From Flavobacteriaceae bacterium (lineage in GTDB: Bacteria; Bacteroidota; Bacteroidia; Flavobacteriales; Flavobacteriaceae): a DNA stretch of 64,000 nucleotides. The stretch is from NCBI GenBank assembly GCA_026710085.1, contig JAPORT010000050.1, positions 3,227 to 67,226 on the forward strand, in the 5' to 3' direction. Position numbers and translations under genes: made by a program. The stretch's first letter is position 1, and each line of letters starts with the position of its first letter. Of the stretch, positions 3,682-61,870 are shown in pieces. Under the pieces are notes generated by a model. It was not told the origin of the DNA, ran no database searches, and saw only the letters and a program-made list of their open reading frames with translations.

Positions 3682-4401
3682 TTACTCGGAGGTATCTTTT
3701 GAAGTTTGAGAGTCATTTACATAAGATTTTTCATACAAATGTGGACGTTTATTTTTAGTATTTGTAAGACTCATTTGATCTCTCCATTGATCAATTTTAG
3801 ATTGATTTCCTGAGAGTAAGACTTCAGGAACTTTCCAGTTATTAAATATCCTCGGTCTTGTGTAAATTGGGGCCTCAATCAAATCATCTTGAAAACTATC
3901 CCCTAGTGCCGAAGACAAATCTGAAAGGACTCCGGGAATTAACCGAACAATGGCATCACAAAAGACCGTAGCCGCAATTTCTCCTCCTGATAGCACATAA
4001 TCACCAACCGAAATCTCTTTTGTAATGAGGTGATCCCGAATTCGTTGATCGACTCCTTTATAATGTCCGCAAAGCAGAAGCAAATTTTTTTTTGTAGAAT
4101 AGTAATTAGCCATCTTTTGGTTTAATAATTCACCATCAGGAGCAAAATAAATGATGTCATCATACCCTCTTTTCCTTTTGAGGTCGGTAATACATTTGAA
4201 TATAGGTTCAATTTTTATGACTAGTCCCACACCTCCCCCAAATGGATAATCATCCACTTGTTTTCTGGGTGGTAACGCATACTGCCGTAAATCATGATAA
4301 TGAATTTCCACTAATTGAGCGTTTAGAGCTCTTTTGACAATGGAGTGTCCAAAAGGACTTTCCATCATTCCAGGAAATAATGTAATAATATCGATTCGCA
4401 T
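3682..4401 (-). CDS. trmD: tRNA (guanine37-N1)-methyltransferase TrmD
   Basis: MRIDIITLFPGMMESPF... and YVLSGGEIAA motifs are typical of TrmD; length 239 aa. Confidence 0.95.
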   Translation of the reverse strand: MRIDIITLFPGMMESPFGHSIVKRALNAQLVEIHYHDLRQYALPPRKQVDDYPFGGGVGLVIKIEPIFKCITDLKRKRGYDDIIYFAPDGELLNQKMANYYSTKKNLLLLCGHYKGVDQRIRDHLITKEISVGDYVLSGGEIAATVFCDAIVRLIPGVLSDLSSALGDSFQDDLIEAPIYTRPRIFNNWKVPEVLLSGNQSKIDQWRDQMSLTNTKNKRPHLYEKSYVNDSQTSKDTSE

Positions 4402-4426
4402 CGTTGTACAAAGTCCCTGTAAACCT

Positions 4427-4444
4427 TTAGGGGAATGCCCCTAA
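4427..4444 (-). terminator. perfect 7-bp hairpin (TTAGGGG-AATG-CCCCTAA) immediately after the htrA stop
   Basis: Seen directly. It starts 2 nt after the stop codon (4446-4448). There is no strong U-tract, so it may be an attenuator or processing hairpin rather than a full terminator. Confidence 0.3.
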
Positions 4445-4445
4445 G

Positions 4446-5813
4446 TTAATAAATCAGTGTAAACTGTTCTCCTTCTGGTGATTGTACTTTGACGGTTTTG
4501 ATGCCCTCATTTTTCCTTTTTATATCTCGAACATCATCAATATTGTTGACTATAATGTCATTGATTTCCAAAATTTGGTAATTCAAATATTTAGCCAAAT
4601 AACTCCTCGAAACATTAGCGATGGTTAATGCCCCATCAGGATAATTTTCATTTCTCTGAGGTTTTATTTCTCTGATTTCCATACCGCCAAATGTTTCAGT
4701 GACCGATTTGGTTAGTGTGACAACAACCTCTTTTAGTTGGCCGTTTCTTTTATAGGATATATTGACTTGGTCACCTGGCCGTTTGCTAAACAAATGACCA
4801 TGTAAATCAGCATACTTATTAATTTTATTGCCATCAATCGTTTTGATGATATCTCCAGATTTCAAATTAGCTTGGCTAGCACCAGTATCTGGGAAAACGT
4901 CACTAATATAAAATCCTTCCGTGTCATCCACATTGAGTTGTTCAGCTGTTTTTCCTGTTAGTGAATTACCGACGACACCCAAAATTCCTTTCTGTATATC
5001 ACCATATTCCATTAAATCTTCAAAAACTTTTCGAACAATGTTGCTAGGAATGGCAAAAGAATAACCCACATATCCCCCAGTTTGTGTTGATATTTTTGTA
5101 TTGATTCCAATAAGTTCCCCCCGGGTATTGACTAAAGCGCCTCCCGAGTTTCCGACATTGACAGCAGCATCTGTTTGAATGAAAGCTTCATTTTTATTAT
5201 CTCTTAAATTAGAATCTCTACTTTTGGCACTAATGATCCCTGCGGTCACTGTTGAGTTAAGATTCAATGGATTACCGACCGTTAAAACCCACTCTCCAAT
5301 TTGTGTATTATCGGAATTTCCGAAAACCATATATGGCAATGGAGTTTCTGGTTCGATTTTCAATATCGCTAAATCTGTATCTGGATTTGCTCGTACAATT
5401 TTCCCATTGAATGTACGATTATCGTTTAGAGTCACTTCCAATCCGTTATTATCTTCGATTACATGATAATTGGTAATAATGTATCCATCTGGTGAAACAA
5501 CCACTCCAGATCCAACCACTGAAGCTGAACTAGATCTTCTGTACCAAGTACTATTAATGGTTCTGATGGATTTGATATGCACTACTTTATTAACCACGTC
5601 ATTCGCAACTTCTACAAAATCTGTAGGTTCTAGCATAGAACTAACATTTGGATAATCATAGGTTGTGGGGATGACTCGATATGGTGACTCGATTGAAGAA
5701 GCATCTATATGCTGAGCATTATCCAGTAAGGGTATCACAAAAAAATAGAAGAGTACAAAACTTAAGAAAGAACTCACGATCGCAATTCCGAATGTATTAG
5801 CAATTTTTCTCAT
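4446..5813 (-). CDS. htrA: periplasmic serine endoprotease, HtrA/DegP/DegQ family (trypsin-like domain + two PDZ)
   Basis: Catalytic motifs ITNYHV, DLAILK, GNSGGAL; N-terminal membrane/signal segment. ATG at 5813 (MRKIANTFGIAIV) preferred over the upstream track start. Confidence 0.9.
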   Translation of the reverse strand: MRKIANTFGIAIVSSFLSFVLFYFFVIPLLDNAQHIDASSIESPYRVIPTTYDYPNVSSMLEPTDFVEVANDVVNKVVHIKSIRTINSTWYRRSSSASVVGSGVVVSPDGYIITNYHVIEDNNGLEVTLNDNRTFNGKIVRANPDTDLAILKIEPETPLPYMVFGNSDNTQIGEWVLTVGNPLNLNSTVTAGIISAKSRDSNLRDNKNEAFIQTDAAVNVGNSGGALVNTRGELIGINTKISTQTGGYVGYSFAIPSNIVRKVFEDLMEYGDIQKGILGVVGNSLTGKTAEQLNVDDTEGFYISDVFPDTGASQANLKSGDIIKTIDGNKINKYADLHGHLFSKRPGDQVNISYKRNGQLKEVVVTLTKSVTETFGGMEIREIKPQRNENYPDGALTIANVSRSYLAKYLNYQILEINDIIVNNIDDVRDIKRKNEGIKTVKVQSPEGEQFTLIY

Positions 5814-5996
5814 TTCAAATCGATTTATCTTGATTATAATAGATGCGAAATTACTTGATTTATTAACTGAAATCTTGAGTTTTAACAAAATTTTAACACT
5901 TTTGCTTGGTTTTCTTTATTGATCTGGTCGGATTTTCTCATTACAAACTAAAAAGAATAATGAGTTCGTCTTTATTTTGTATCGCAATACGTGTGA

Positions 5997-6788
5997 ATGA
6001 TGGTGATTGATTTCATTAAATATCAAGGTTCAGGAAATGATTTTATTTTGATTGAAAACATCAATGGGAAAATTCCCAATTTAAGTCGCAATACCATTCA
6101 ACATTATTGTCATCGCCATTTTGGTATTGGTGCTGATGGACTGATCATTATAAAGCAGAGTAAAGTTGCCGATTTTTATATGACCTATTACAATTCGGAC
6201 GGGAATATGAGTAGCCTTTGTGGCAATGGCAGTCGCTGTGCTGTGAGATTTGCCCATAGTCACTCTTTGATTCAAGCTAATGCAACGTTTGAGGCATATG
6301 ATGGAATCCATGAGGCTCAAATTTTAAAAGATGATCGAATAGCCATTCGGTTTAATGATATTGACCAATTAGAAAAATATCAAGATGGGGTTATTTGTGA
6401 TTCAGGATCGCCACATTACGTGCAATTTGTTGACAATATAGATGCTATTGACTTGATCCCTCTTGCTCGATCGATTCGAAATAATTCAAGGTTTCAAGAA
6501 AAAGGGATTAATGTGAATTATTTCCAAAAAAATAGTTCTTCAGAATTTGGTATTCGTACTTATGAACGAGGCGTAGAAAATGAAACTTTGTCATGTGGTA
6601 CGGGTGTGGTTGCTACTGCTATAGCATCCCATTTTTTAAAAATTTCTAATGCCTCCAAATTATTATTTCAAACTAAAGGGGGGTTATTAGAAGTTCATTT
6701 TACAGTTGAAAAATCAAAATACACTCACATTTCTTTGATTGGTCATGCTCATGAAGTTTTTCAAGGTCAAATTGATTATCAAATGTGA
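5997..6788 (+). CDS. dapF: diaminopimelate epimerase
   Basis: GSGNDFILIEN, SLCGNGSRC and SCGTGVVA active-site Cys motifs. Confidence 0.9.
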   Translation: MMVIDFIKYQGSGNDFILIENINGKIPNLSRNTIQHYCHRHFGIGADGLIIIKQSKVADFYMTYYNSDGNMSSLCGNGSRCAVRFAHSHSLIQANATFEAYDGIHEAQILKDDRIAIRFNDIDQLEKYQDGVICDSGSPHYVQFVDNIDAIDLIPLARSIRNNSRFQEKGINVNYFQKNSSSEFGIRTYERGVENETLSCGTGVVATAIASHFLKISNASKLLFQTKGGLLEVHFTVEKSKYTHISLIGHAHEVFQGQIDYQM

Positions 6789-7303
6789 ATTCAATTCAAC
6801 TTCGAGCGATAGAAAAAGAAGATTTACATTTTCTCTACCAAATTGAAAATAATCGTCAATATTGGAACTATTCCAATCGAATCGAATCTTATTCCAAAAC
6901 GCTTTTAAAGAATTTCATTGAAATACAACAACAAGATATTTATCAAACTCGACAAAAACGTTTTCTGATTATTATACAAGAAAATACAAAATGCGGATTT
7001 GTTGATTTATTCGAATTTGAACCCAAACATCAAAGGGCCTCTGTGGGCATTATTGTCATAGAAAAATTTCGTTCGAAAGGAATTGGTTTTGGTGCTTTAT
7101 CACTTTTAGAAGAGTATAGTAAAAATATTTTAAACCTTCATCAAGTCTATGCCCATATAGCAAAAGAAAATGCTCCTAGCATCAAACTATTTGAAAAAGC
7201 CAATTACAACCTAATTGGGGTCAAGAAAGATTGGAATTTTTACAATAACAAGTTTCATGATGAACTTTTATATCAGAAATTACTTTTGGTTGCGAAACCT
7301 TAA
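6785..7303 (+). CDS. GNAT family N-acetyltransferase (RimJ/RimL-like)
   Basis: GNAT core (RSKGIGFGALSLLEEY); 4-nt overlap (GTGA) with the dapF stop. Confidence 0.75.
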   Translation: MNSIQLRAIEKEDLHFLYQIENNRQYWNYSNRIESYSKTLLKNFIEIQQQDIYQTRQKRFLIIIQENTKCGFVDLFEFEPKHQRASVGIIVIEKFRSKGIGFGALSLLEEYSKNILNLHQVYAHIAKENAPSIKLFEKANYNLIGVKKDWNFYNNKFHDELLYQKLLLVAKP

Positions 7304-21616: not shown

Positions 21617-24366
21617 GTGTCAGAAAATCAAAGTTTTAAGGGAAGTAAATGGTGGAAATTTGACTTCCACACGCACACGCCAGCTTCAGCTGATTATTTA
21701 TCAAAATGTACATCACCTAAAGATTAGATTCGTAAAACAATAGAAGCAGGATTAGATTGTGTCGCTATAACAGATCACAACACAGGTGATTGGATTGATA
21801 AATTAAAAAAAATAATAATGAAATTAGGAGCAGTATTGACAGACCTTATTGGTATACTAAGGAATTAACTATTTTTCCTGGAGTTGAAATCACTATTGGA
21901 GGTAATAATCAAAGAACTCATGTATTAGCAATTTTTGATCCTAAACTTGGCAGTAATAAAATAACAAGTGTGCTTGGTGCATGTGGAATAACTAAGGGAT
22001 TCGGTGAAAGTGAACATTTTACTATAAAACGTTTAGCTGATGTACTATATATAATTAAACAGAATAATGGGGTTGCTATTGCGGCTCATGTAGATCGAAG
22101 AAACGGACTTCTTCATCAAGAAACCACTCTAAAAAAAGTGCTTAAAAAAAATCTTGACAGTTTAACTGCTTTAGAGTTTTGTGAATGTGAATCTAACAAC
22201 TACTCTCCTGAATTAAAGAGTGAAATAGATAAGCTTGCACATGTTTCAAGTTCAGATGCTCATAATCCTGATGACATTGGCAAATCCTTTTCTTGGATTA
22301 AAATGAGTAAACCAAATATCAATAATTTAAAACTAGCACTACTTGACACTCATATGTCAGTCAAAAACCAATCTGAAAATCCTAACGAATTTTCAGATAT
22401 TTTTTTGACTAAACTGACTATAAAATCCATGAAACACTGTGGACGCATACAAAACAAACCATTTATAATCGATTTGAATCCTCACTTCAATTCGTTAATC
22501 GGTGGACGAGGAACTGGAAAGTCTACGATTATTGAAGCTATTCGCATTGCTTCACGTTGTGATAGAAATCTTGAATCACAAGCCCCAGAAGTGAGTAAAC
22601 AGCTTAAAGAGTTTATGAGACATTCTCATGATGATGGGGTAATGCTTAATGATACAGAAATATTATTAGAGTTACAACGTCGTGATAAAAAGTATGTCTT
22701 AAGATGGAATTATGATGGAAATGGAATAACTGTAACTGAAGAAAGTTCTTTACAAAGTTCTATTGACTCTAAAAATCTCAAAGAAAGGTTCCCCATAAGT
22801 ATATATAGTCAAAAGCAAATTAATGAACTCTCTTCAAATTCAAGCGGTCTCATAGACATTATTGACAATTCAAAAGAAGTAAATCGACTCGAGCTGAAAT
22901 CTAGTTGGGATAGTACCTTAAGCAAATTCTTTCAGTTAATGATAAGAAAAAGAGAGTTATCAAGAAATATAAATCAAGAGCTTGAACTAACGGTTAAATT
23001 AACAGACATAGAAAATGACTTGAAACATTATGAAGAAAAGGGGCATGAAAACGTTTTGAATTTATATCAGAAACGTAGCCAACAGAAAAGTGTACTCTCA
23101 GATAATTACATTTTTGACAATCTTTACGATAGTTTAAATTCATTGGTTGAAAACAGTGTGTTACCCGATTTTCCCGAACACATATTCGACGAACAAGATG
23201 AGACAACCACTGAAATCAAAAAAATTTATTCAGAAATAGGTGAAAAATTCAGCAATCTTAGAAAGTCAATTATTCGAATTGCAAAAGAAGTAAAGGATTT
23301 AAACAATCAAAGAACATTCAAAATATCCTCAACTAGTTGGAAAAAATCGTTAGATGATAGTATTGAAAAATATCAAAAACTAATTAAAGAGTATGAGAAA
23401 AGTAAAACATCAATAGATGTATATACATACGGTGTTTGGGTTCGTGAACGTAATCAACTACTTGGTAAGTTGAAAAGTATAAGTATAATTCAAAAAGAAT
23501 TTAATCTTCTTGAGATAGAAGTTAAACAAACAAAAAATAAACTTTTAGATTTAAGAAAGGAACTCTTTGTGCGTAGGGCAAACTTTATTGAGAAAGTTAT
23601 TGGAAAAAACGATTTCGTACGAATGGATTTAGTGCAATTTGGAGATACAAAAGATGTAGAAAAAAAATATCGATCGATTCTAGGCATTGAAAAAGAAAAG
23701 TTCAAAAGTTCGATATATGATATTGATAACAAACAAGGTGTTTTATGGGATTTTATGAATTGGGAAAAACAAAAAGTACCTAAGTCTAAACTTTCAAAAC
23801 TTATTTTTGAAATCAAAAATAAAACTCATAGAATTGCAAGAGGTATTGAAGATTATGGACTACATGGTAAGTTTGTGAATTATTTAAACGCCCTATACAA
23901 GGAAAAACCAGAGTTATTCGATAAACTAAAGGTATGGTGGCCAAAAGATAAACTTCGAGTCAAATATTCCAAAAATTCTAAATTTTACGACTTGAATAAA
24001 GGCTCAATTGGGCAAAAGTCTGCTGCGATTTTATCCTTTTTATTAAGTCATGGTAGTGAACCTCTAATAATAGATCAACCAGAAGATGATTTAGATAACG
24101 CCCTAATTTACGACCTAATTGTAAAACAAATACGTCAGAATCAAAATAAACGTCAATTTATAATTGCAACTCACAACCCAAACATTGTAGTTAACGGAAA
24201 TTCTGATCTTGTTAATATTCTAAAATTTAAAAATGGTCTAGTAACTCTACATCAAAAAGGTGGACTTGATGAAATAGAAATTCGAAATGAGATATGTAAC
24301 ATCATGGAAGGTGGTCGAGAGGCTTTTGAAAATAGGTATAAGCGAATTGCACTTGAAGTAGAATAA
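21617..24366 (+). pseudogene. PHP-domain + SMC/ABC-like ATPase (Ppl/TrlF-like architecture), N-terminal PHP domain disrupted
   Basis: From GTG 21617: VSENQSFKGSKWWKFDFHTHTPASADYLSKCTSPKD, then TAG (21725-21727), then IRKTIEAGLDCVAITDHNTGDWIDKL. The frame then shifts in the A8 run 21805-21812 into ...RPYWYTKELTIFPGVEITIGG... and the 798-aa ORF. That ORF has PHP residues AAHVDR and SSSDAHNPDD, Walker A GGRGTGKST, long coiled-coil-like K/E-rich segments, and C-terminal IIDQPEDDLD / IIATHNPN. Confidence 0.75.
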
Positions 24367-24378
24367 AATGCAAAAATC

Positions 24379-25620
24379 ATGAATGATTTGATTAATCAAA
24401 TTAGGTTAGGTGAAGAAACTTTGCTTGAATTTAAAAATCTTCAATACAAAGGATATCAAGTTGTCGGCCCTCATCGTAATAGTATGGCTGATGAGTTAGC
24501 TGCAATGGCAAATACAGATCACGGTGTATTTTTACTTGGTGTTGATGATAAAACCAAAACAATTGTTGGTATTCCTATTGAAAAAATAGATGTTGTTGAA
24601 CAATGGATAATGGGAATATGTAATGATCTTATTGAGCCAAAGTTAAACTATTATATTCGGAAACTGCCTATAATTACTGATGACACCGAAGAACAAATCA
24701 TCATTAGATTAGATGTACGCAAAAGTCTAATTGTTCATAAAAGTCCAGGGGGATACTTTCACCGTATTGGTAGTTCTAAACGTCAAATGGACACTAATTA
24801 CTTAACTGGATTTATCCAGCAAAGAAGTCAAACTAGAGTTATTAATTTCGATCTTCAACTTGTAACAGATGCTCATCCTGACTGTCTTGAAAAAACTTTG
24901 TGGGGAAAATTTAAAACAAATTTATCTCCAGAAGATGACGATGAATTCTTACAGAAACTTAAACTGATTAAAAAGGATTCAGATGGACAGAATTATCCGA
25001 CCGTTGGTGGACTTTTAATGGCTAGTAAAAGACCTGATGAGTTTTTACCTCATGCTTACATACAGGCCGTTGCTTATCGGGGAACTGAAAGAGATGCAGC
25101 TTATCAAATAGACGCTAAAGATTTATACGGTCCTTTAGACGTTCAAATTGACAAAGCTTGTCATTTTGTTTATAAGAATATGAGAGTCTATGCCATTAAA
25201 AATCCAACTAGACTTGATATTCCTCAGTATGACATGCGTGCAATATTAGAATCAATTGTCAATGCAATAATCCACAGAGATTACTACAATTATAAATCTA
25301 AAATTCGTTTGCATATGTTCTCAGATAGACTTGAAATTTTTTCACCTGGAGCACTAGCCAATTCTATGACCATTGAAAATATACCTTTATTACAAGCTAC
25401 TCGTAATGAATTAATTGCTAGTTTAATTGCAAGATGTCCGATAAACCCAAGTGAATACATAAAGAGTAATCGTAAAAATCTAATGGATAAACGAGGTGAA
25501 GGAGTGCCGATTATACTTACAAAGAGTAAAAATTTATCAGGACGTATCCCTGAGTACAGAGAAATTGACCAAATGGAATTACTCTTGACAATATACGCAA
25601 CACCACCTCCCAACATATAA
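24379..25620 (+). CDS. AlbA_2 (Schlafen-like) DNA-binding domain protein with C-terminal HATPase_c_4-like/wHTH region
   Basis: N-terminus LINQIRLGEETLLEFKN and GVFLLGVDDK are typical of AlbA_2 putative DNA-binding proteins. C-terminus has NAIIHRDY...GEGV motifs. It starts 12 nt after the preceding stop, so likely the same operon. Confidence 0.65.
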   Translation: MNDLINQIRLGEETLLEFKNLQYKGYQVVGPHRNSMADELAAMANTDHGVFLLGVDDKTKTIVGIPIEKIDVVEQWIMGICNDLIEPKLNYYIRKLPIITDDTEEQIIIRLDVRKSLIVHKSPGGYFHRIGSSKRQMDTNYLTGFIQQRSQTRVINFDLQLVTDAHPDCLEKTLWGKFKTNLSPEDDDEFLQKLKLIKKDSDGQNYPTVGGLLMASKRPDEFLPHAYIQAVAYRGTERDAAYQIDAKDLYGPLDVQIDKACHFVYKNMRVYAIKNPTRLDIPQYDMRAILESIVNAIIHRDYYNYKSKIRLHMFSDRLEIFSPGALANSMTIENIPLLQATRNELIASLIARCPINPSEYIKSNRKNLMDKRGEGVPIILTKSKNLSGRIPEYREIDQMELLLTIYATPPPNI

Positions 25621-30438: not shown

Positions 30439-32658
30439 TTAACGTTTGAATTTAGCATAGTCGGGGAGTAATTGTTTTAAAAGCGAGTTTAATTTACTAA
30501 AGTCTGGAACTCTATCTAGTTTTTCTAATCGATTGACTTCATGAGCTATTTGGATATGCCAATGATTACTCGAGTCAAATAATGGAATGGGAATGGATTT
30601 GAACGGACTTTTGTGATAGTGCATTTTGGATGTTTTAGTCCATCGCCAAGCTGGTTGCATGTTGGGTGCATTGATGACCCCAACAAGATATTGAGCTTCT
30701 TGTTCAGATTCACATAAAATATAGTACAATTTGGAATTTGCAATGATGTTGCGTGGAATTCTTATAGCCCTTAACGTATTGCCGGAAGAATTATAGACCA
30801 CTTTTGTTCTTGTCGTATCATCGCCACATTTGTTTAATTCATCTTCTAAATCTCTCTTAAATCCATAATTAAGTTCTAAAATTGGTTTAGACCTGTCCAT
30901 ATCTCTTTTTTCATCATATTGTTTTTGACATTTTTTCCAATATTGATGAAGATGAGGATATAGCCTTTTTCTTTCCAAATTTTCATTCTTCAATACATCA
31001 ATTCCATCCACTCCTAACATTAATTTTTGGTTTTTATCTAATGGTGCAATGAGCCACATTTCTGGTTCGTAGTTTAATTGTTTCAAATGTTTGCTATCGA
31101 TTAATGGAAGTAAACACTCGGATTCAATCATTCCATCAAATCCACAATTTTTCCAATCGCCTCTGGTTCCTTTTTGTGTGAATATTTCAGATAACCCCTT
31201 TTCCTTATCCATTCGTTTTAACACTTGGAAGTAACAAAATGGGCCAAAAAAAACCCCTCTTTCTACTTTATCCAAATATGGAGATTGAGCATGATTCATT
31301 GAATTGATTTGTTTTATCATTGGATTTTCTACATAATTTCCACTGAATCGAAATACTTGATGAGTTTTGAATTCAACTTTTTCATCGGTCGTTTTTCCCA
31401 ATACAACACTGCACCCATTGGGTGAATGTGCAAAAATGGGTGGTTCAACATCGGTTAAGTCCCACATTTCTTGATGTTGTACTTTCACATTCTTCCAGTT
31501 GCCTTCACGCCATTTTCTCCATGCCTGTCCAATGATGGGACTCTTGGGCAATACCCAGCCATACCCTCCTCCTTTTTGAGGTAAATAAAGCCTGATTGTT
31601 CTTGCTGTAAATAAACATGCTAAATCAACATTAGCCAAATAACCATTGGTTCGAGTATAGACCCCTTCGTCTTTTGCAATTTGTTTGTAAAGTACCTTTC
31701 TGATGGACTCTTGAGCATTATTTTGAACTAACCATGGGGGATTGCCAACAATACGCCCTACCCCTTTGGAAAAAAGATTGGTTAAGTATACTTTATTACG
31801 AATCAACCATTCCCAAATATGATTACCCTCTTCTTCAATGATTTTCTTCAAATCTTCATATAACGTTTTGACTGAACCTTTGATCCCTTCATCAAATTCA
31901 TCCAAACGGATCATTTTATTTTGAGTCACAATAGCATGGTTGATTGAGGAAACAATATTTGAAAAAAAGGGGTGATGATACAAAACACTTGAAATCTGAA
32001 TGGTGCTTTTTGGTGTTTTAATATCAATAAATAAATATTTGTCTCCGACATTATATTCATTTAGAGCACTACCAAGACATACTCGATAAGCTCCATCATG
32101 GAGTGAATCTGTTAAAATTGCCCTTAATGTTGCTTTACTCATCTCAACGGCAATAGGATGAATATCGATTCCATGAACTAATCTCGCAATGATTTTTGAG
32201 GCATGAAATAATTTGTCCTTATGATTCCGTCTTATTCGATTCTTTATGTGGATCGCGGACTGCAATAAAAAGGTTCCAGAACCACATGATGGATCAAGGA
32301 CTCCCAAGTATTCATCATTCGTGGCCTTTCCCATCATCAAATGATAGGCTCTTTCAATCGATTCATCCAACCAATCATCATCTAAGACTTGTTCCACCAC
32401 ATCTTTTGCCAAATAATCCGGCGTGTAAAACTCCCCAAATTCCTTTCTTTGCTCTGGCGGTGTTAAAGCATGATACAAATATTTCAAAACATCTTGTGAA
32501 TAAAATTCCCATTGATATTTTTGAATTTCAGAGGCCAACTGTATCATCAACTTTTTGGTTGACCGATGTTCCAATAGCCAAGCATGAAAGCCATCGCCTA
32601 CATAGTCGACCAACTCTTTTTTGGATAACGTCGGATGATCTAAATGGCCAATAATCAT
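30439..32658 (-). CDS. N6-adenine DNA methyltransferase + target-recognition part of a Type IIG/IIL (MmeI-like) R-M enzyme
   Basis: FGEFYTP, motif I LDPSCGSGTFL, motif IV GNPPW, long C-terminal TRD. The same frame stays open upstream with no stop as far as 32992, through the homopolymer at 32967-32975. Confidence 0.8.
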   Translation of the reverse strand: MIIGHLDHPTLSKKELVDYVGDGFHAWLLEHRSTKKLMIQLASEIQKYQWEFYSQDVLKYLYHALTPPEQRKEFGEFYTPDYLAKDVVEQVLDDDWLDESIERAYHLMMGKATNDEYLGVLDPSCGSGTFLLQSAIHIKNRIRRNHKDKLFHASKIIARLVHGIDIHPIAVEMSKATLRAILTDSLHDGAYRVCLGSALNEYNVGDKYLFIDIKTPKSTIQISSVLYHHPFFSNIVSSINHAIVTQNKMIRLDEFDEGIKGSVKTLYEDLKKIIEEEGNHIWEWLIRNKVYLTNLFSKGVGRIVGNPPWLVQNNAQESIRKVLYKQIAKDEGVYTRTNGYLANVDLACLFTARTIRLYLPQKGGGYGWVLPKSPIIGQAWRKWREGNWKNVKVQHQEMWDLTDVEPPIFAHSPNGCSVVLGKTTDEKVEFKTHQVFRFSGNYVENPMIKQINSMNHAQSPYLDKVERGVFFGPFCYFQVLKRMDKEKGLSEIFTQKGTRGDWKNCGFDGMIESECLLPLIDSKHLKQLNYEPEMWLIAPLDKNQKLMLGVDGIDVLKNENLERKRLYPHLHQYWKKCQKQYDEKRDMDRSKPILELNYGFKRDLEDELNKCGDDTTRTKVVYNSSGNTLRAIRIPRNIIANSKLYYILCESEQEAQYLVGVINAPNMQPAWRWTKTSKMHYHKSPFKSIPIPLFDSSNHWHIQIAHEVNRLEKLDRVPDFSKLNSLLKQLLPDYAKFKR

Positions 32659-32944
32659 TCGGGAAACAGAAACAATAAAAGAATGCCGCCAAAAAATGTC
32701 AGCCTCTATGGTTGGAGCACGATCTGGAATGACTCCTGCGTTTTTTAAGATGATTTTCCAAACCCCAATTTTCGTATGGTACTCCGTTGTTGACTCTAAT
32801 TGTTCCGATTGAATCGTACTTTTGATATTACTAAAAATCGGCTTGAAATCTTTTTCAAGTAAATTTTCTTTGGATGGTATTTTTATTTTTTGAACCCCTT
32901 TCCATCGATCATAGATGGAATCTTGGAGATATTGATGAATGGAT

Positions 32945-33367
32945 TCAGGGGTTTGAAAGGCTTTTGCCCCCCCCCATTTTTTCAGATTCTCTTAATTTTC
33001 GATGGTTGCTATCGTAATCATAACACGCCCATAGCTGGCCATCCGTGATCATCCCTTTCCAAACAATCGATTGACCTTGATTCCATAATTCATTATTAAA
33101 ATTGGGCACAACGCCATCAAGGTATTTTAATAATTGAGTTTTATTCTCTTCAATGTTCATCTGACCTCGTTTTTTGGTTTCGATGACCACTTTATTTGAA
33201 AATGAAATCATATCACATAACCCTTCTGATGTTGAAAAGTTTTGAGTCCAATCGTCTTCACTATTGAGTTGCCGAAAAATCATCTTTAGAAGGGTTTCAA
33301 GATTTCTTTCAGCACTATCAAGTTGAATTAATTCTTGATAGAGGTTTTCTTGTTCTTGATTCATCAA
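32945..33367 (-). CDS. PD-(D/E)xK endonuclease module of the Type IIG enzyme (truncated 10 codons after the G9 tract)
   Basis: CDMISFSNKVVIETKKRGQ...QLLKYL has the same D-x(10-11)-ExK-x-RG...Q..Y layout as MmeI-family nuclease domains. It reads into the methylase frame if the tract is G8 or G11. Confidence 0.65.
   Translation of the reverse strand: MMNQEQENLYQELIQLDSAERNLETLLKMIFRQLNSEDDWTQNFSTSEGLCDMISFSNKVVIETKKRGQMNIEENKTQLLKYLDGVVPNFNNELWNQGQSIVWKGMITDGQLWACYDYDSNHRKLRESEKMGGGKSLSNP
32967..32975. repeat. homopolymer C9 (G9 on the coding strand) at the nuclease/methylase junction
   Basis: Counted directly (cttttgCCCC CCCCCatttt). Tract length sets the reading frame between ORF 32945-33367 and the methylase frame. 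Confidence 0.95.
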
Positions 33368-33521: not shown

Positions 33522-34406
33522 TTATTCATTGTAAGGATCATACCCTTTGATGCTTTTATATCTCTTTTGGATTGTATCTAAGTGAGCTCCTTTTTTGGTG
33601 TCTTTCATACGCATTTCTCTTATAACGTATTTGAAATAAGAAATAGCATGATTAAACATATAATTGATAAAAGGTTCCATACTCTTATCATGCCATGAAC
33701 ATCTCAATGAGTATTTATAGAGTTCTGCATTATTTTCTAATATAGTTGTCAGTGGTTGTTTATGATAACCTTGTACATAGTTCATTAATAATCGACTGAT
33801 TCGGCTATTGCCGTCACCAAAAGGATGAATAGTTATTATGTCATAGTGCATTTTAAAACTTAATTCATAGATATCTAATACGTCTTTTACTTACCGACAT
33901 TTAGCATTATTTTCGACAAGTATTTTAGATAATTGAGATATCACTTCAGAATAGTGAATGAATTCATGTTTCGCATTTTTATTGAACTCCCATTCAACTT
34001 GGTAATCTCTTATTTTTCCCGAAGATCTATTGACGACCCGTCCACTTTCTATCATTCCAAGATTATTTATTTTATTCAATAATATTTTATTGACTTCTTC
34101 AATCATTGGTATTTCTATCGAGGTTTTAAATCGACAAAAATTGATCACCTTGTACAATGCATTGATATGGTTTTTTACCATTTGATCGTGCTCTACTGGT
34201 TTTCCAGAAGGTTTTCCATACTTCTGTAGTAAAGCCACTTCTTTTCTAGTCAGAGTACTTCCTTCAATTTTGGTGCTCTGCTCGGTAAGCAAAGCAACTA
34301 AGTCTTCTTGAATAAAAGAAGAATTAGAAATCAATTTTTTATAATTATTTACTTGGTTTAAGAATTCTTTTTTATCAAACGATTCTAAATTGTCCAAATT
34401 CATCAA
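33522..34406 (-). pseudogene. Fic-domain protein (class II, internal inhibitory SxxxEG helix) interrupted by one in-frame TAA
   Basis: ORFs 33891-34406 and 33522-33851 are in the same frame, separated only by TAA (33891-33893) plus 13 sense codons: ...ENNAKCR*VKDVLDIYELSFKMHYDIITIHPFGDGNSRISRLLMNYV. The Fic motif is HPFGDGNSR (G to S at the penultimate position). The inhibitory motif STKIEG is in the N-terminal part. Confidence 0.75.
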
Positions 34407-37535: not shown

Positions 37536-38720
37536 TTATAACAAATCAAACATCCGTTGTATTCTCACACTTGGTTTATGACCAATCATCTTTAAATAGT
37601 TTTGATATTCTTGCAACATCCAAGTTCTTAAAGATGGAATCGGGATTTGATAAAATCCATCAGGACGCATCTGCAAAACACCCCAGGAAACCAAGTCTTG
37701 AAACATCTGTTTCGGATCGCCAACAGTAGGGTTATTTTTAAAATCTGATTTCACTTGAGTTCCTATCACTATGTTTTCATGCTGTTCATTTTCAAATAGA
37801 GCATGATAAATGGACGCTCTTTCTTGTGCTTCCAACTCAGCAAAACGTTCATGATAATAAGTCTTTTTTTTACGACGAGATTCCTTTAATACTTCCGATA
37901 ATAAATCTTCTGACAATTGCCCACCTTCTTCTTTTATTTTTTCCAATGCCACTTGTCCATAGCACGAAACATGATGAGCCCACTGATGTGTTTCTTTTGA
38001 CATTTGATTCACCCAATGATTAAGATTCGAATCAGTAACAGCAACTCTAGCCCCTTCCACCAAATAATCTTTCAAAATATTATTTTCTGCTTCTTTGTCT
38101 AGTATGCTTAAATTAATGACATAATCATCATTGAATCTTGATATTTCAAAATCTTTAAATATTTTTCGGGTATGACTTAATCCAGTAATTAAAAAAACCA
38201 ATCCATGTTTTAATTCAAGATTATGAATTTCATCGAATAAGTTGGCTATTTTTTTTGTTTCAAGACTATCCTTGGTGATGCCAATACGAATCATTTGTGC
38301 TTCATCTAAAGACAGTATAATGGGTTTATCAACAGCCTTAACCATTTTTGAAATGCTAGGTTCAGTTCTATCATACCGCATCTTTTTCCTGAGCACTTTA
38401 AAATTTATTTGAACCTCTTTTGATGTTTTATCATAATTCTTTTCACCAATTAAAGCATTTTGTAATCTGCTGACATTTAATAAAGCATTCAATTCTAATT
38501 TCACGACATGGCAACCTCTTTTTTTCATTTGTTTCCCAAACTCATTTAAAAGAGCTGATTTACCAACACCTGGTGCTCCTTGTATTAAGATCGAGTGACT
38601 TTTTTGATTTTTTTTAGATAATGCTAAAATTTTATTGAAAAAGTTAATTTCTTGTTCTCTCCCATGAAAATAATGTGCTGCTCCACGATCCGTAACCGCC
38701 ACTCTTTTATGAGAACTCAT
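37536..38720 (-). CDS. P-loop NTPase (AAA+/archaeal-ATPase-like), paralog 1
   Basis: AHYFHGREQEI, Walker A QGAPGVGKSALL, Walker B ILSLDEAQ, C-terminal DGFYQIPIPSLRTWMLQEY. ATG 38720 (MSSHKRVAVTDRG) preferred to the TTG track start at 38768. Confidence 0.7.
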   Translation of the reverse strand: MSSHKRVAVTDRGAAHYFHGREQEINFFNKILALSKKNQKSHSILIQGAPGVGKSALLNEFGKQMKKRGCHVVKLELNALLNVSRLQNALIGEKNYDKTSKEVQINFKVLRKKMRYDRTEPSISKMVKAVDKPIILSLDEAQMIRIGITKDSLETKKIANLFDEIHNLELKHGLVFLITGLSHTRKIFKDFEISRFNDDYVINLSILDKEAENNILKDYLVEGARVAVTDSNLNHWVNQMSKETHQWAHHVSCYGQVALEKIKEEGGQLSEDLLSEVLKESRRKKKTYYHERFAELEAQERASIYHALFENEQHENIVIGTQVKSDFKNNPTVGDPKQMFQDLVSWGVLQMRPDGFYQIPIPSLRTWMLQEYQNYLKMIGHKPSVRIQRMFDLL

Positions 38721-38774
38721 ACACACGAAATTAACAGATTTCGCTAATCCGTGCCGTATCGCTAACAAAAAATG

Positions 38775-38870: not shown

Positions 38871-39344
38871 TTATCCAAAACCTCCTCGATTCGCAAAGTT
38901 CGCAAATTCACCCTGATTAAAAACCTGTTCTAGTCGATTTTTGCCTGATTGATCCAGCAACCATTGTCGCGCTCCATCTGAATACCCACCACCATCAAGA
39001 AGAATCATCGTATTGTATTGACTTTGATTGATGCACAAAACTTCATACGGATATTTTTCTTCAACACTTCCGCCAGAAGCTTGCCACTTGCATTGAATAG
39101 CCAAACAGCTTGGATATTGTTTTGGGTGATAAAGAATTAAATCGACCAATCGTCTTTTGTCGTAAATACTCTTACCTGTCTCAAACTGCCTCGAATAAAT
39201 GGGTTGATTCTTTTCACGCATTGGTAAAAATCGATGCGGTTCGGTATATCGGTAACCTCTTTCCTCCAATATTTCAGAAGCAAACCGTTCTAGTCTTTTT
39301 CCAGACGTATTAGCACGTGTACCACCGCTTTTTCGTCGTGACAT
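38871..39344 (-). CDS. small PD-(D/E)xK-type nuclease, putative restriction endonuclease partner of the Dam-like methylase
   Basis: GKRLERFASEILEERGY ... VDLILYHP...LAIQCKW fits a D...(E/Q)xK core. Its ATG overlaps the methylase stop by 1 nt (TAATG), implying translational coupling. Confidence 0.5.
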   Translation of the reverse strand: MSRRKSGGTRANTSGKRLERFASEILEERGYRYTEPHRFLPMREKNQPIYSRQFETGKSIYDKRRLVDLILYHPKQYPSCLAIQCKWQASGGSVEEKYPYEVLCINQSQYNTMILLDGGGYSDGARQWLLDQSGKNRLEQVFNQGEFANFANRGGFG

Positions 39345-40164
39345 TATTTCTTACTAGTGATCAAAAGCTCCGTCACTTGTTGACGTTTGGAGGCTTTACA
39401 ATTGATATTTCTAGAGGCTTGAATTTGATTGATCTGATAGCCTTTCCACGTTTTCCTTATAAAATCGGTATCACTGTTTGATACAATAATGCGAGCTCCT
39501 GCCTCGGCCCAAGAATCGCACATTTCCCTTAATTTGACTTGGCTATCTCTATTAAAACCTGAATTTGTATACTGATCGTATGTTTCATCGTAAGGTGGAT
39601 CGCAATACACTAAGTCATGATGACCTGGCCTGATATGCTCAAATGATTGAACTTTCAAATCAACAGATTCTAACACTTCTGAAACTTTCATTAAATTCAT
39701 TGTATCATAAATCTTAGGATTCTTGTATTTTCCTATTGGAACATTAAACCGACCAACTTGATTGACTCTATAAAGCCCATTATAACACGTTTTGTTTAAA
39801 TAGATAAATTGAGCTGCCAACTTCATAGCATCTTGCCCATGATTATATTGGGAATTATATTCTTCTCTTATGGAATAGTAATGTTCTTTTGAATGCTTTT
39901 TTTGATAGTCAGATAGTTGTTCAATGACCTTTCTTGGTGATTTCTGCAACATTCGATAGGTCAGCATCAAATCAGCATTGACATCGCTTAAAAAAGCCTT
40001 ATGATGTATTCTGCTATTCAGTCCAAAAAAAACGGCACCACCGCCTAGAAAAGGCTCATAATAATCATTAAATGGGGGGGGGCGATAAACCTTTCTATAT
40101 GAGAAATTAACGCTCTTTTTCCGCCAGCCCATTTAAGAAATGGGTATGCTTGTGATGGGTTCAA
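39344..40164 (-). CDS. Dam-family (alpha-class, DPPY) N6-adenine DNA methyltransferase, frame interrupted at a C9 tract
   Basis: From TTG 40164: [30 protein letters not shown]. The frame is then lost. The downstream ORF has [16 protein letters not shown] (motif I) and VYCDPPY (motif IV). Motif X (KWAGGK) and motif I are in different frames with 9 C and in one frame with 10 or 7. Confidence 0.8.
40074..40082. repeat. homopolymer G9 (C9 on the coding strand) inside the 5' end of the Dam-like methylase
   Basis: Counted directly (aatGGGGGGG GGcgat). Confidence 0.95.
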
Positions 40165-40263
40165 TTTAAGGTAAAAAAATCGTCACTAAATTACGTTAAA
40201 AAAAACTGGATGAATCATCAATTATTAGAATATGGCTATCCATTATATCTCAACCACTGAGTG

Positions 40264-40311: not shown

Positions 40312-41367
40312 TTAAGAGAACACTTTAAGGTTGTTTTCATATTCTTGAAGCATCCAAGTCCGCAACGATGGAATGGGAATCTGGTAAAATCCATCCGAAC
40401 GCATCTGTAAAATACCTTTTGAAATCACTGTTTGGAAAGTTTTTTCGGGGTCTTGAAATCGTTGCACTTTTTTTAAATCCAATAAAGCATCAACTCCGCT
40501 GATGAGATTCTCGTTGATTTCATGATCGAATAGAGCATGAGATATCGCTATCCTTTCGGATGGTTTCCATTCATCAAAAAGTCCTTGATAATACTCCTTT
40601 TTCTTTTCACGCGATAGGACTAATATCTTATCCAATACATCTTCGGTTAACTGTCCATTATTCTTTTGAACAAGTCTTGAAACTATCTGTCCATAACAAG
40701 AAAGATAATCAGGCCATTGATGCGTTTCATTAGTTAAAGTATGAATCCATTGGCCTAACTTTGGATGATCCGGATGGACACCAGTCCCTTTGACTAAAAA
40801 ATCTTGAAGGATGTGCTTTTCGGCTTTTTTATCCAAAGTTTCCAATCGGAAAACACAGCCACTATTGAAACGTATGATTCGAAACTCATGGAAGAAACTC
40901 CGAGTATGAGTCAATCCGGCCATCAATAGAATCAGGCCATGTTCCGTATGGAGATTATGTAATTGATTTAATACGCTAACGGTTTGCATGATTTTAGAAT
41001 GTTCATGCCGATAGCCGACACCCAGCAAGTGGGCATCATCCAAGACCAACAACATCGGTTTTTGAATGGCCTCAATAGTTCTGGATATGCTTGGAAAAAG
41101 GCCATCCGTTTTGGCTTCACCGAATAAAATCTTTTGGAGGGAATCGATACACCATAAAGATTCTAATGTTAATGTTGCTACCGTCCAACCACTCTTTTCT
41201 CCTACTTTTTCGAGTTCTCTTAGTAATGCTGTTTTACCAACACCAGGTGCTCCTTGCAAAAGCACCGTGTACCCTTTTTGACTTTTTTGTGATAAGACTA
41301 CAATCGATTGGAAAGCATGGATTTCTTGTTCTCTTCCATGAAAATAATGGGCTCTTCCACGATTCAT
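40312..41367 (-). CDS. P-loop NTPase (AAA+/archaeal-ATPase-like), paralog 2
   Basis: AHYFHGREQEI, Walker A QGAPGVGKTALL, Walker B LLVLDDAH, C-terminal DGFYQIPIPSLRTWMLQEY. Colinear with paralog 1 over its whole length by eye. Confidence 0.7.
   Translation of the reverse strand: MNRGRAHYFHGREQEIHAFQSIVVLSQKSQKGYTVLLQGAPGVGKTALLRELEKVGEKSGWTVATLTLESLWCIDSLQKILFGEAKTDGLFPSISRTIEAIQKPMLLVLDDAHLLGVGYRHEHSKIMQTVSVLNQLHNLHTEHGLILLMAGLTHTRSFFHEFRIIRFNSGCVFRLETLDKKAEKHILQDFLVKGTGVHPDHPKLGQWIHTLTNETHQWPDYLSCYGQIVSRLVQKNNGQLTEDVLDKILVLSREKKKEYYQGLFDEWKPSERIAISHALFDHEINENLISGVDALLDLKKVQRFQDPEKTFQTVISKGILQMRSDGFYQIPIPSLRTWMLQEYENNLKVFS

Positions 41368-59870: not shown

Positions 59871-61870
<2,000 letters not shown>

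Follow-up and report, generated by a model that had tools for sequence, protein, structure and literature searches.

The DNA analysed here, hereafter the window, is a stretch of 64,000 nucleotides (nt) from contig JAPORT010000050.1 (assembly GCA_026710085.1, positions 3,227 to 67,226), and the metagenome-assembled genomes (MAGs) from which it derives are labelled 'Flavobacteriaceae bacterium' at NCBI. On its minus strand lies a predicted Dam-type adenine methylase gene whose reading frame is broken at a run of nine cytosines (C9), followed directly by an intact gene for a small predicted PD-(D/E)xK nuclease. The features of the locus, in window coordinates and with lengths of predicted proteins in amino acids (aa), are as follows.

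40165 to 40204, minus strand: methylase leader, the first 40 nt of the block that is common to the two genomic contexts of the module.
40083 to 40164, minus strand: N-terminal segment of the methylase with the Dam motif, in the frame of TTG 40164; its translation aligns with 18 homologue N-termini, DpnM and EcoDam.
40074 to 40082, minus strand: C9 homopolymer, the sole frame break of the methylase gene; C10 or C7 restores a single open reading frame (ORF).
40045 to 40047, minus strand: TAG at which, with C9, the TTG-40164 frame terminates after 39 codons.
39344 to 40132, minus strand: 262-aa ORF from ATG 40132 to TAA 39346-39344, annotated by gene callers as Dam methylase.
39342 to 39346, minus strand: TAATG, in which the methylase stop and the nuclease start overlap by one base (39344); identical or similar overlaps occur in the family.
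38871 to 39344, minus strand: intact gene for a predicted 157-aa PD-(D/E)xK nuclease, the presumed restriction partner (PF20472 PDDEXK_11, E 1.4e-28).

A first-pass annotation of this DNA had placed the N-terminal Dam motif and motif I of a methylase in different frames across the C9 run (plus-strand G9, 40074-40082), and translation confirmed this arrangement. The plus-strand G9 has T and C as its flanking bases. FxKWAGGK, FxGxG and DPPY are all present in the gene, with FxKWAGGK at C9 in another frame than the remaining two, and the three motifs share one frame only with ten or seven C. The same annotation had expected either of these lengths to yield a normal protein of about 273 aa, which proved correct: C10 encodes 273 aa and C7 encodes 272 aa, the C10 version matching the D12/Dam models from end to end, and no full-length protein results from C8, C9 or C11. 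The C10 protein covers positions 1-253 of the 253 positions of Pfam profile PF02086 (E 8.5e-55, 186.7 bits at a cut-off of 22) and scores 266.5 bits with the TIGR00571 'dam' model (cut-off 114.85). Its best solved relative is DpnM (PDB 2dpm, E 6e-52), followed by EcoDam (1.5e-35). An in-frame TGA seven codons upstream leaves TTG 40164 as the sole candidate start of the motif-bearing frame. The run occupies codons 28-30 of 273 and so falls in the 5′ part of the ORF. In place of IAPP(P)F the homologues have VL-PESF, their DNA contains no run at that site, and the region differs in length between DpnM and EcoDam. With seven C the region would have the length typical of close homologues, and ten C would add one extra proline. 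Taken together, these comparisons assign the gene, as judged from its sequence, to the Dam/DpnM-type (D12-class) N6-adenine methylases, interrupted only at the tract.

Upstream of the methylase, a terminator-like hairpin (40302-40280) closes an ATPase gene. A scan for sigma-70 promoters returned counts equal to the shuffle expectation, the sigma-70 model not being appropriate for Bacteroidota. Within the methylase gene, a weak hairpin followed by T8 forms a terminator-like site (40030-40047) that abuts the frame-0 TAG at 40047-40045. This site is probably coincidental, dictated by the codons of motif I (GGGAVFF); it could nevertheless add to polarity when the gene is out of frame (the OFF state).

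Public annotation presents this gene as the 262-aa ORF, and NCBI names the corresponding protein cluster (P0001/P0121/P0122) 'Dam family ... [Flavobacteriaceae bacterium]'. From 40072 onward the ORF is the true methylase body, including motif I and YCDPPY, and its first 17 codons are out-of-frame sequence. Were this protein an active methylase, nothing would be switched off at the locus. The ORF is open, it carries the Dam annotation, and it keeps motif I, DPPY and the C-terminal half. We nonetheless consider its activity very improbable, as it lacks FxKWAGGK. In an alignment of 20 sequences W12 and K16 are invariant and P8, F9, K11, A13, G14, G15 and R17 are at least 90% conserved, and these residues are missing from the ORF; the 17 residues that replace them have no homologues. 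The solved chains of DpnM and EcoDam include the corresponding N-terminal segment, and in the EcoDam and T4 Dam structures these residues contact S-adenosylmethionine (AdoMet) and the GATC site. Moreover, the true N-terminal frame is open in all haplotypes described below, and the one change that it contains (S/P) matches the family consensus P.

The first-pass annotation had also described a PD-(D/E)xK ORF starting at the TAATG overlap, and this was borne out, with base 39344 shared between the two genes. The nuclease keeps all invariant columns of its family, namely D68, Q84-x-K86, W87, Q88, GSV, K97 and DGGGY; D68 and K86 are invariant, whereas at position 84 close relatives have Q and distant relatives E. 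Its AlphaFold2 model is confident, with a predicted local distance difference test (pLDDT) score of 86. A fold search returned weak, generic PD-(D/E)xK matches only, the best being the MspJI nuclease domain (6.6e-3), and comparison of the sequence with the PDB gave no match even at E 10. PADLOC holds no model for the nuclease and a literature search on PF20472 found nothing. Matches as weak and generic as these do not point to a specific restriction enzyme. No spacer of its own precedes the nuclease gene, which on the same message follows about 700 nt after the stop that ends the 39-codon TTG frame. At C9 the ATG-40132 ORF is in the frame of the methylase body and ends at the same TAATG, so that ribosomes can still reach the nuclease start.

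To place the pair within its family, genomes were scanned with an alignment of the nuclease, and the best 80 of 239 related loci were kept. Many of these belong to lineages whose names suggest sponge symbionts (Poribacteria, Caldilineaceae, Spongiisociaceae and Poriferihabitaceae). In 75 of the 80 nuclease loci the gene immediately upstream, on the same strand, encodes a D12 methylase, and it occupies a single frame in 66 of those 75. The stop of the methylase and the start of the nuclease are separated by -8 nt (19 loci), -1 nt (11 loci), -4 nt (4 loci) or a gap of +1 nt (4 loci), 38 loci in all. Judged by these loci, the family normally has the methylase first and the nuclease second, with the stop of the one overlapping or abutting the start of the other, and translational coupling is a plausible family trait. 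Some nuclease homologues give weak matches to Pfam DpnII (PF04556).

Two further observations concern the family. In a Nitrosomonadaceae MAG (OZ252054.1; loci L074-L077 and L080, about 640-2970 in each) the methylase-nuclease pair stands behind an IS1595-family transposase in a 2.33-kb unit, present in at least five copies with at least 99.6% identity; the module can thus be transposon cargo. Fragments of IS1595 also occur near the module in locus L004, and in genome L104 near a Type IIG gene treated below. In a Rhodobacteraceae MAG (L067, about 1800-1830) the motif I glycine codons form a G8 run at which the methylase, next to an intact nuclease, loses its frame; this would be a second, independent homopolymer break in the methylase family.

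GATC is the most depleted 4-nt palindrome of the window, with 237 sites against 366 expected (observed/expected 0.65, z -6.7). This depletion is consistent with long exposure to GATC-specific restriction, and GATC is likely the target of the module. A nuclease specific for GATC, if unopposed, would find lethal targets in the 237 sites that remain in 64 kb. A second Dam-type gene was not found within the window.

A second homopolymer, a further switch candidate, lies 7 kb away in a gene for a Type IIG restriction-methylase.

30439 to 33364, minus strand: Type IIG gene, with the nuclease part at 32945-33364 and the methylase/target-recognition frame open from 32991 to 30439.
32967 to 32975, minus (coding) strand: G9 tract that splits this gene of about 975 aa; G8 or G11 restores the frame.

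The gene matches Pfam Eco57I, N6_Mtase and MmeI_Mtase, shows a weak DpnII-MboI restriction endonuclease match in its N-terminal part, and is recognized by the PADLOC model REase_MTase_IIG (1.9e-37). A homologue with 62% identity (P0244) is continuous across the tract site and lacks the three residues encoded there ('MGG'). The related genome L104, about 84% identical at the DNA level over the gene (4303-7293 in that contig), has ten G (4683-4692) at the same codon, a length to be taken with caution as the contig has 9x coverage only. The in-frame lengths are 8 or 11 in both the window and L104.

Such runs are out of keeping with the composition of the window. G/C 8-mers occur five times (overlapping matches) against 0.45 expected from dinucleotide shuffles, an approximately 10-fold excess, and none of 100 shuffles reached five. 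The numbers of G/C runs of lengths 4 to 9 are 132, 30, 4, 0, 1 and 2, respectively. The only two 9-nt runs both fall in the 5′ part of restriction-methylase genes, which cover about 6% of the window. Its GC content is 36%; CCC accounts for 21% of proline codons and GGG for 15% of glycine codons. Beyond the tracts, the frames stay open for 242 codons (Dam) and 850 codons (Type IIG). Compared with their homologues, both tracts appear as insertions or recodings in variable loops and are, on that comparison, lineage-specific.

The length of the Dam tract was then examined in public data, at the level of assembly consensus only. Eleven public loci covering the tract were collected from ENA, Logan and NCBI records by exact-protein look-ups, giving 12 sequences with the window, and all 12 have C9. 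The records represent three haplotypes, which carry 0-31 substitutions relative to the window over 2.7 kb (0.5-2% apart). They show two upstream contexts that diverge exactly at window position 40204, 40 nt before the TTG; homology of the window to loci L004 and L006-L012 begins at this same position. In other strains the upstream ATPase is replaced by IS1595, an N6_N4 methylase and two small ORFs. Nine of the 11 loci were retrieved via the 262-aa ORF, which exists only at out-of-frame lengths, and the sample is biased to that extent; members of the protein cluster of this ORF are all 262 aa long. A DNA pattern scan that allowed a tract of C5 plus 0-12 bases between exact flanks gave no match in GTDB species genomes and none in JGI metagenomes.

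An error of homopolymer length in sequencing or assembly could mimic such a break, if the real genome had C10. Some of the contigs have names in the style of long-read assemblers, and homopolymers can be miscalled at low coverage. Such an error is scarcely credible here, since C9 recurs in 11 records that differ in assembler and read type (MEGAHIT-style, Logan and long-read-style contigs). As an internal control for run length, the G8 run of pfkA (61085-61092) is in frame and encodes the RGG of the conserved HIQRGGSPS. Furthermore, the Dam tract needs one additional nucleotide and the Type IIG tract one fewer, so that no single length bias explains both. The tract is genuine and not a sequencing artefact.

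We compared substitutions among the three haplotypes, with each part of the methylase translated in its own frame. In this gene 3 changes are synonymous and 2-3 non-synonymous (dN/dS about 0.2), with no stop and no indel. Counted over all its sites, it has diverged less than the nuclease and ATPase genes have at synonymous positions (Fisher p 0.004, 0.07 and 0.03, from comparisons that are not independent). For the nuclease, dN/dS is about 0.3-0.7. The downstream ATPase (37536-38768) has dN/dS of 0.3-0.55, with the maximum between the window and L004. Small as the numbers are, the substitution pattern of the methylase is not what would be expected of a pseudogene older than the haplotype split. 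According to the first-pass annotation, an invariant tract together with further inactivating lesions in methylase and nuclease would mark simple pseudogenes. Here the two parted: tract length does not vary among the 12 sequences, all of which have C9, and further lesions in either gene are found in no haplotype.

These observations lead us to propose the following model. The pair would constitute a DpnII/Dam-like Type II restriction-modification module of two genes on the chromosome, in which a D12-class adenine methylase precedes a small PD-(D/E)xK nuclease. The methylase of this lineage gained a C run in a length-tolerant loop, 27 codons into the gene, such that nine C put it out of frame and one added C restores the full-length enzyme. 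In the OFF state, ribosomes from TTG 40164 would stop after 39 codons, and the nuclease would presumably be weakly expressed, owing to the loss of coupling and to polarity caused by the early stop at 40045. Such weak expression would account for the viability of cells with an intact nuclease and 237 GATC sites. The Type IIG enzyme 7 kb away would bear a second tract of the same kind. Actual switching, GATC specificity, nuclease activity and co-silencing are what we infer from these features.

Several lines of evidence favour the interpretation of the locus as a slipped-strand contingency switch that is OFF in every population sampled. G/C tracts are over-represented, both 9-mers fall in restriction-methylase genes and are lineage-specific, and the two genes are otherwise intact. 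The Type IIG tract has been kept in a relative at a different length (G10 versus G9). Despite C9 in three haplotypes the methylase is not decaying, and the nuclease retains its invariant residues. Finally, the overlap of methylase and nuclease is conserved, GATC is depleted, and there is a precedent in Helicobacter pylori. On this evidence, and from sequence data alone, we favour the contingency switch tentatively, at a little less than an even chance.

A substantial body of observations weighs against it. Nuclease-based retrieval, which has no tract-length bias, likewise yields C9 only. A search of 5.8 billion protein clusters with the in-frame 273-aa protein found no ON allele, returning the 262-aa ORF (about 95% identity) and then homologues of at most 64%, and no in-frame Dam allele is assembled anywhere in the collections searched. 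Only three independent haplotypes are represented, and the signal of selection on the methylase is thin, resting on 5-6 substitutions. The Type IIG tract is OFF in both lineages, and the L104 gene has a further frame break beside an A9 run. A frameshifted methylase stands beside an uninterrupted nuclease in five of about 75 other loci, with one break at a G8 run in the glycine codons of motif I and the rest at ordinary, non-tract positions; a broken methylase with an intact nuclease therefore occurs without any switch. In the same defence-rich region of the window, a SoFic-like Fic gene (33522-34406) is split by an in-frame TAA (33893-33891) into an N-terminal half of 170 aa and a C-terminal half of 109 aa with HPFGDGNSR, an ordinary pseudogene, and FA_hydroxylase is split in haplotype L005. 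The suggestion of the first-pass annotation that one tract would switch methylase and nuclease together also survives only in part: the TAATG overlap and its conservation in the family support coupling in principle, but joint silencing is not assured, because the ATG-40132 frame reaches the same junction and could keep the nuclease coupled in the OFF state.

Many of these points suit the main rival explanation, that the methylase is a plain pseudogene. The mutation-prone C run would have slipped once and the loss become fixed, leaving a decaying remnant in a defence island that sheds genes. The nuclease would be unexpressed or inactive from a cause that the sequence does not reveal, or another methylase elsewhere in the genome would protect GATC. 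The invariance of C9 in all assemblies and haplotypes with no in-frame allele in the collections searched, the nonsense codon of the nearby SoFic-like gene and the FA_hydroxylase split in one haplotype, the frameshifted methylases beside uninterrupted nucleases in other genomes, and the two frame breaks of the related Type IIG gene in L104 are all readily explained in this way. Set against them, the frameshift predates the split of the three haplotypes, yet the methylase has no second lesion and a dN/dS of about 0.2, and its divergence is lower than that of neighbouring genes at synonymous sites. The 850-codon Type IIG frame is also still open. Two 9-nt G/C runs in restriction-methylase genes of a window with 36% GC are unlikely to be coincidental, and a nuclease with all family-invariant residues would be unexpected long after loss of the methylase. 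On balance we judge a plain pseudogene less likely than the switch, though to be taken seriously.

A different explanation is that C9 is the working allele and that the frame is corrected during expression. Either RNA polymerase would stutter and add a C, or ribosomes would slip by -1 on C CCC CCC with two tRNA-Pro; both would supply full-length methylase (equal to the C10 product) in a small, constant amount, sufficient for protection from a nuclease that is expressed weakly. Frame 0 after TTG 40164 does contain gcC CCC CCC, a perfect X XXY YYZ heptamer, and a -1 slip there would give IAPPPF. The same out-of-frame length in three haplotypes, flanking coding sequence apparently under purifying selection and the evident viability of cells with C9 and an intact nuclease are in keeping with such recoding. 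However, a stimulatory RNA structure was not found in the 131 nt from the tract onward (z +0.93; 168 of 200 shuffles fold at least equally well), the Type IIG tract needs the opposite shift, and the haplotypes are only 0.5-2% apart, so that conservation of C9 carries little weight. Documented transcriptional slippage in bacteria, moreover, mainly involves A/T runs. We therefore regard recoding as improbable. An extension of the idea, to which we likewise give only an outside chance, is that the overlapped nuclease follows whichever frame is read, such that the homopolymer would set the methylase-to-nuclease ratio of a Type II system. Related to it, and as remote, is the possibility that the 157-aa nuclease requires the methylase for its activity, as in Type III systems, in which case a methylase switch would be intrinsically safe.

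Beyond the module, the window begins at dnaA (367-1827), which places the region close to the chromosomal replication origin, and it holds housekeeping genes typical of Bacteroidota. The lineage is apparently sponge-associated. Between 22 and 41 kb the window is rich in defence genes, comprising a Ppl-like ATPase, Schlafen/AlbA_2, the Type IIG enzyme, the SoFic-like gene, an IS605 TnpB and two AAA_16/ATPase_2 genes. The Ppl-like ATPase (PADLOC 2e-98) and, after it, the Schlafen/AlbA_2 protein, which has a HATPase_c_4 domain, occupy 21970-25620, and the island is interleaved with secDF and mdh. The two paralogous AAA_16/ATPase_2 (STAND-like) genes, at 40312-41367 and 37536-38768, flank the methylase-nuclease pair and have a near-identical C-terminal stretch in common (YQIPIPSLRTWMLQEY). 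They were considered as parts of the system and rejected, as they are absent from homologous methylase-nuclease loci and their PADLOC matches are weak.

The module can be compared with several known systems. With the DpnII system, including DpnM, and with the GATC methylases of E. coli and T4 (Dam), the methylase shares the character of a D12-class alpha-type N6-adenine methylase with the motifs FxKWAGGK, FxGxG and DPPY. The likeness to the DpnII system extends to the pairing with a predicted PD-(D/E)xK nuclease and the depletion of GATC. The module differs in that the nuclease here is a 157-aa PF20472 protein without a sequence match to a solved structure and with weak fold matches only, and in that the methylase is out of frame. 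In Type III mod phasevarions, a repeat tract in the methylase gene switches methylation and restriction together, as it would for methylation, and probably for restriction, here. There, however, Res needs Mod, so that the OFF state is intrinsically safe; no such dependence is known for the present nuclease, and the repeat units in mod genes usually have four or five nucleotides.

Restriction-methylase genes with homopolymer switches are already well known. Among the phase-variable ones is Campylobacter jejuni cj0031, with a poly-G tract. The genes described here resemble the restriction-methylases of H. pylori and Campylobacter in having a G/C run of at least 8 nt in the 5′ part, in a low-GC genome with several such genes. 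In H. pylori, the Type IIG enzyme JHP1272 is turned on or off by the length of a poly-C tract (PMC3936762); as in JHP1272 / HP1353-54, where the poly-C gives a PPPP region (PMC3936762), the Dam tract encodes poly-proline in a gene that is otherwise intact. Switching has been demonstrated in those species, whereas no length variant of the Dam tract exists among the 12 sequences here. Further differences are that the tract here interrupts a methylase encoded apart from its nuclease, in a two-gene Type II system where loss of the methylase alone should be dangerous, and that the host is an uncultured marine Bacteroidota MAG rather than a host-adapted pathogen. A Type II methylase with a Dam-type part whose frame is set by the length of a simple repeat is found in Metamycoplasma hominis, where dcm8/dam3 depends on TA repeats, 6 to 12 of which were seen by Sanger sequencing of clones (PMC10305163); that repeat is a dinucleotide and the methylase a fusion. 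Literature searches on phase-variable restriction-modification in sponge symbionts and on the sample accessions found nothing. What is new is the host, an uncultured marine Flavobacteriaceae MAG, and the location of the tract, which lies in a methylase gene separate from that of the nuclease, in a two-gene Type II module whose nuclease is intact.

If the methylase were a mere pseudogene, the finding would be ordinary. The locus raises the question of how an intact nuclease is tolerated beside a broken methylase. It also bears on annotation: the out-of-frame 262-aa ORF is publicly named 'Dam family methyltransferase' without a frameshift flag, and predictions of methylomes and defence systems from such MAGs would therefore be wrong. 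If the two tracts do switch, an uncultured Flavobacteriaceae lineage would randomise its restriction barriers and its methylome by poly-G/C loci of the Campylobacter/Helicobacter type. The strategy would then also be known from marine symbionts among the Bacteroidota and from a Type II system of the classical two-gene form, in which switching of the methylase is normally considered lethal.

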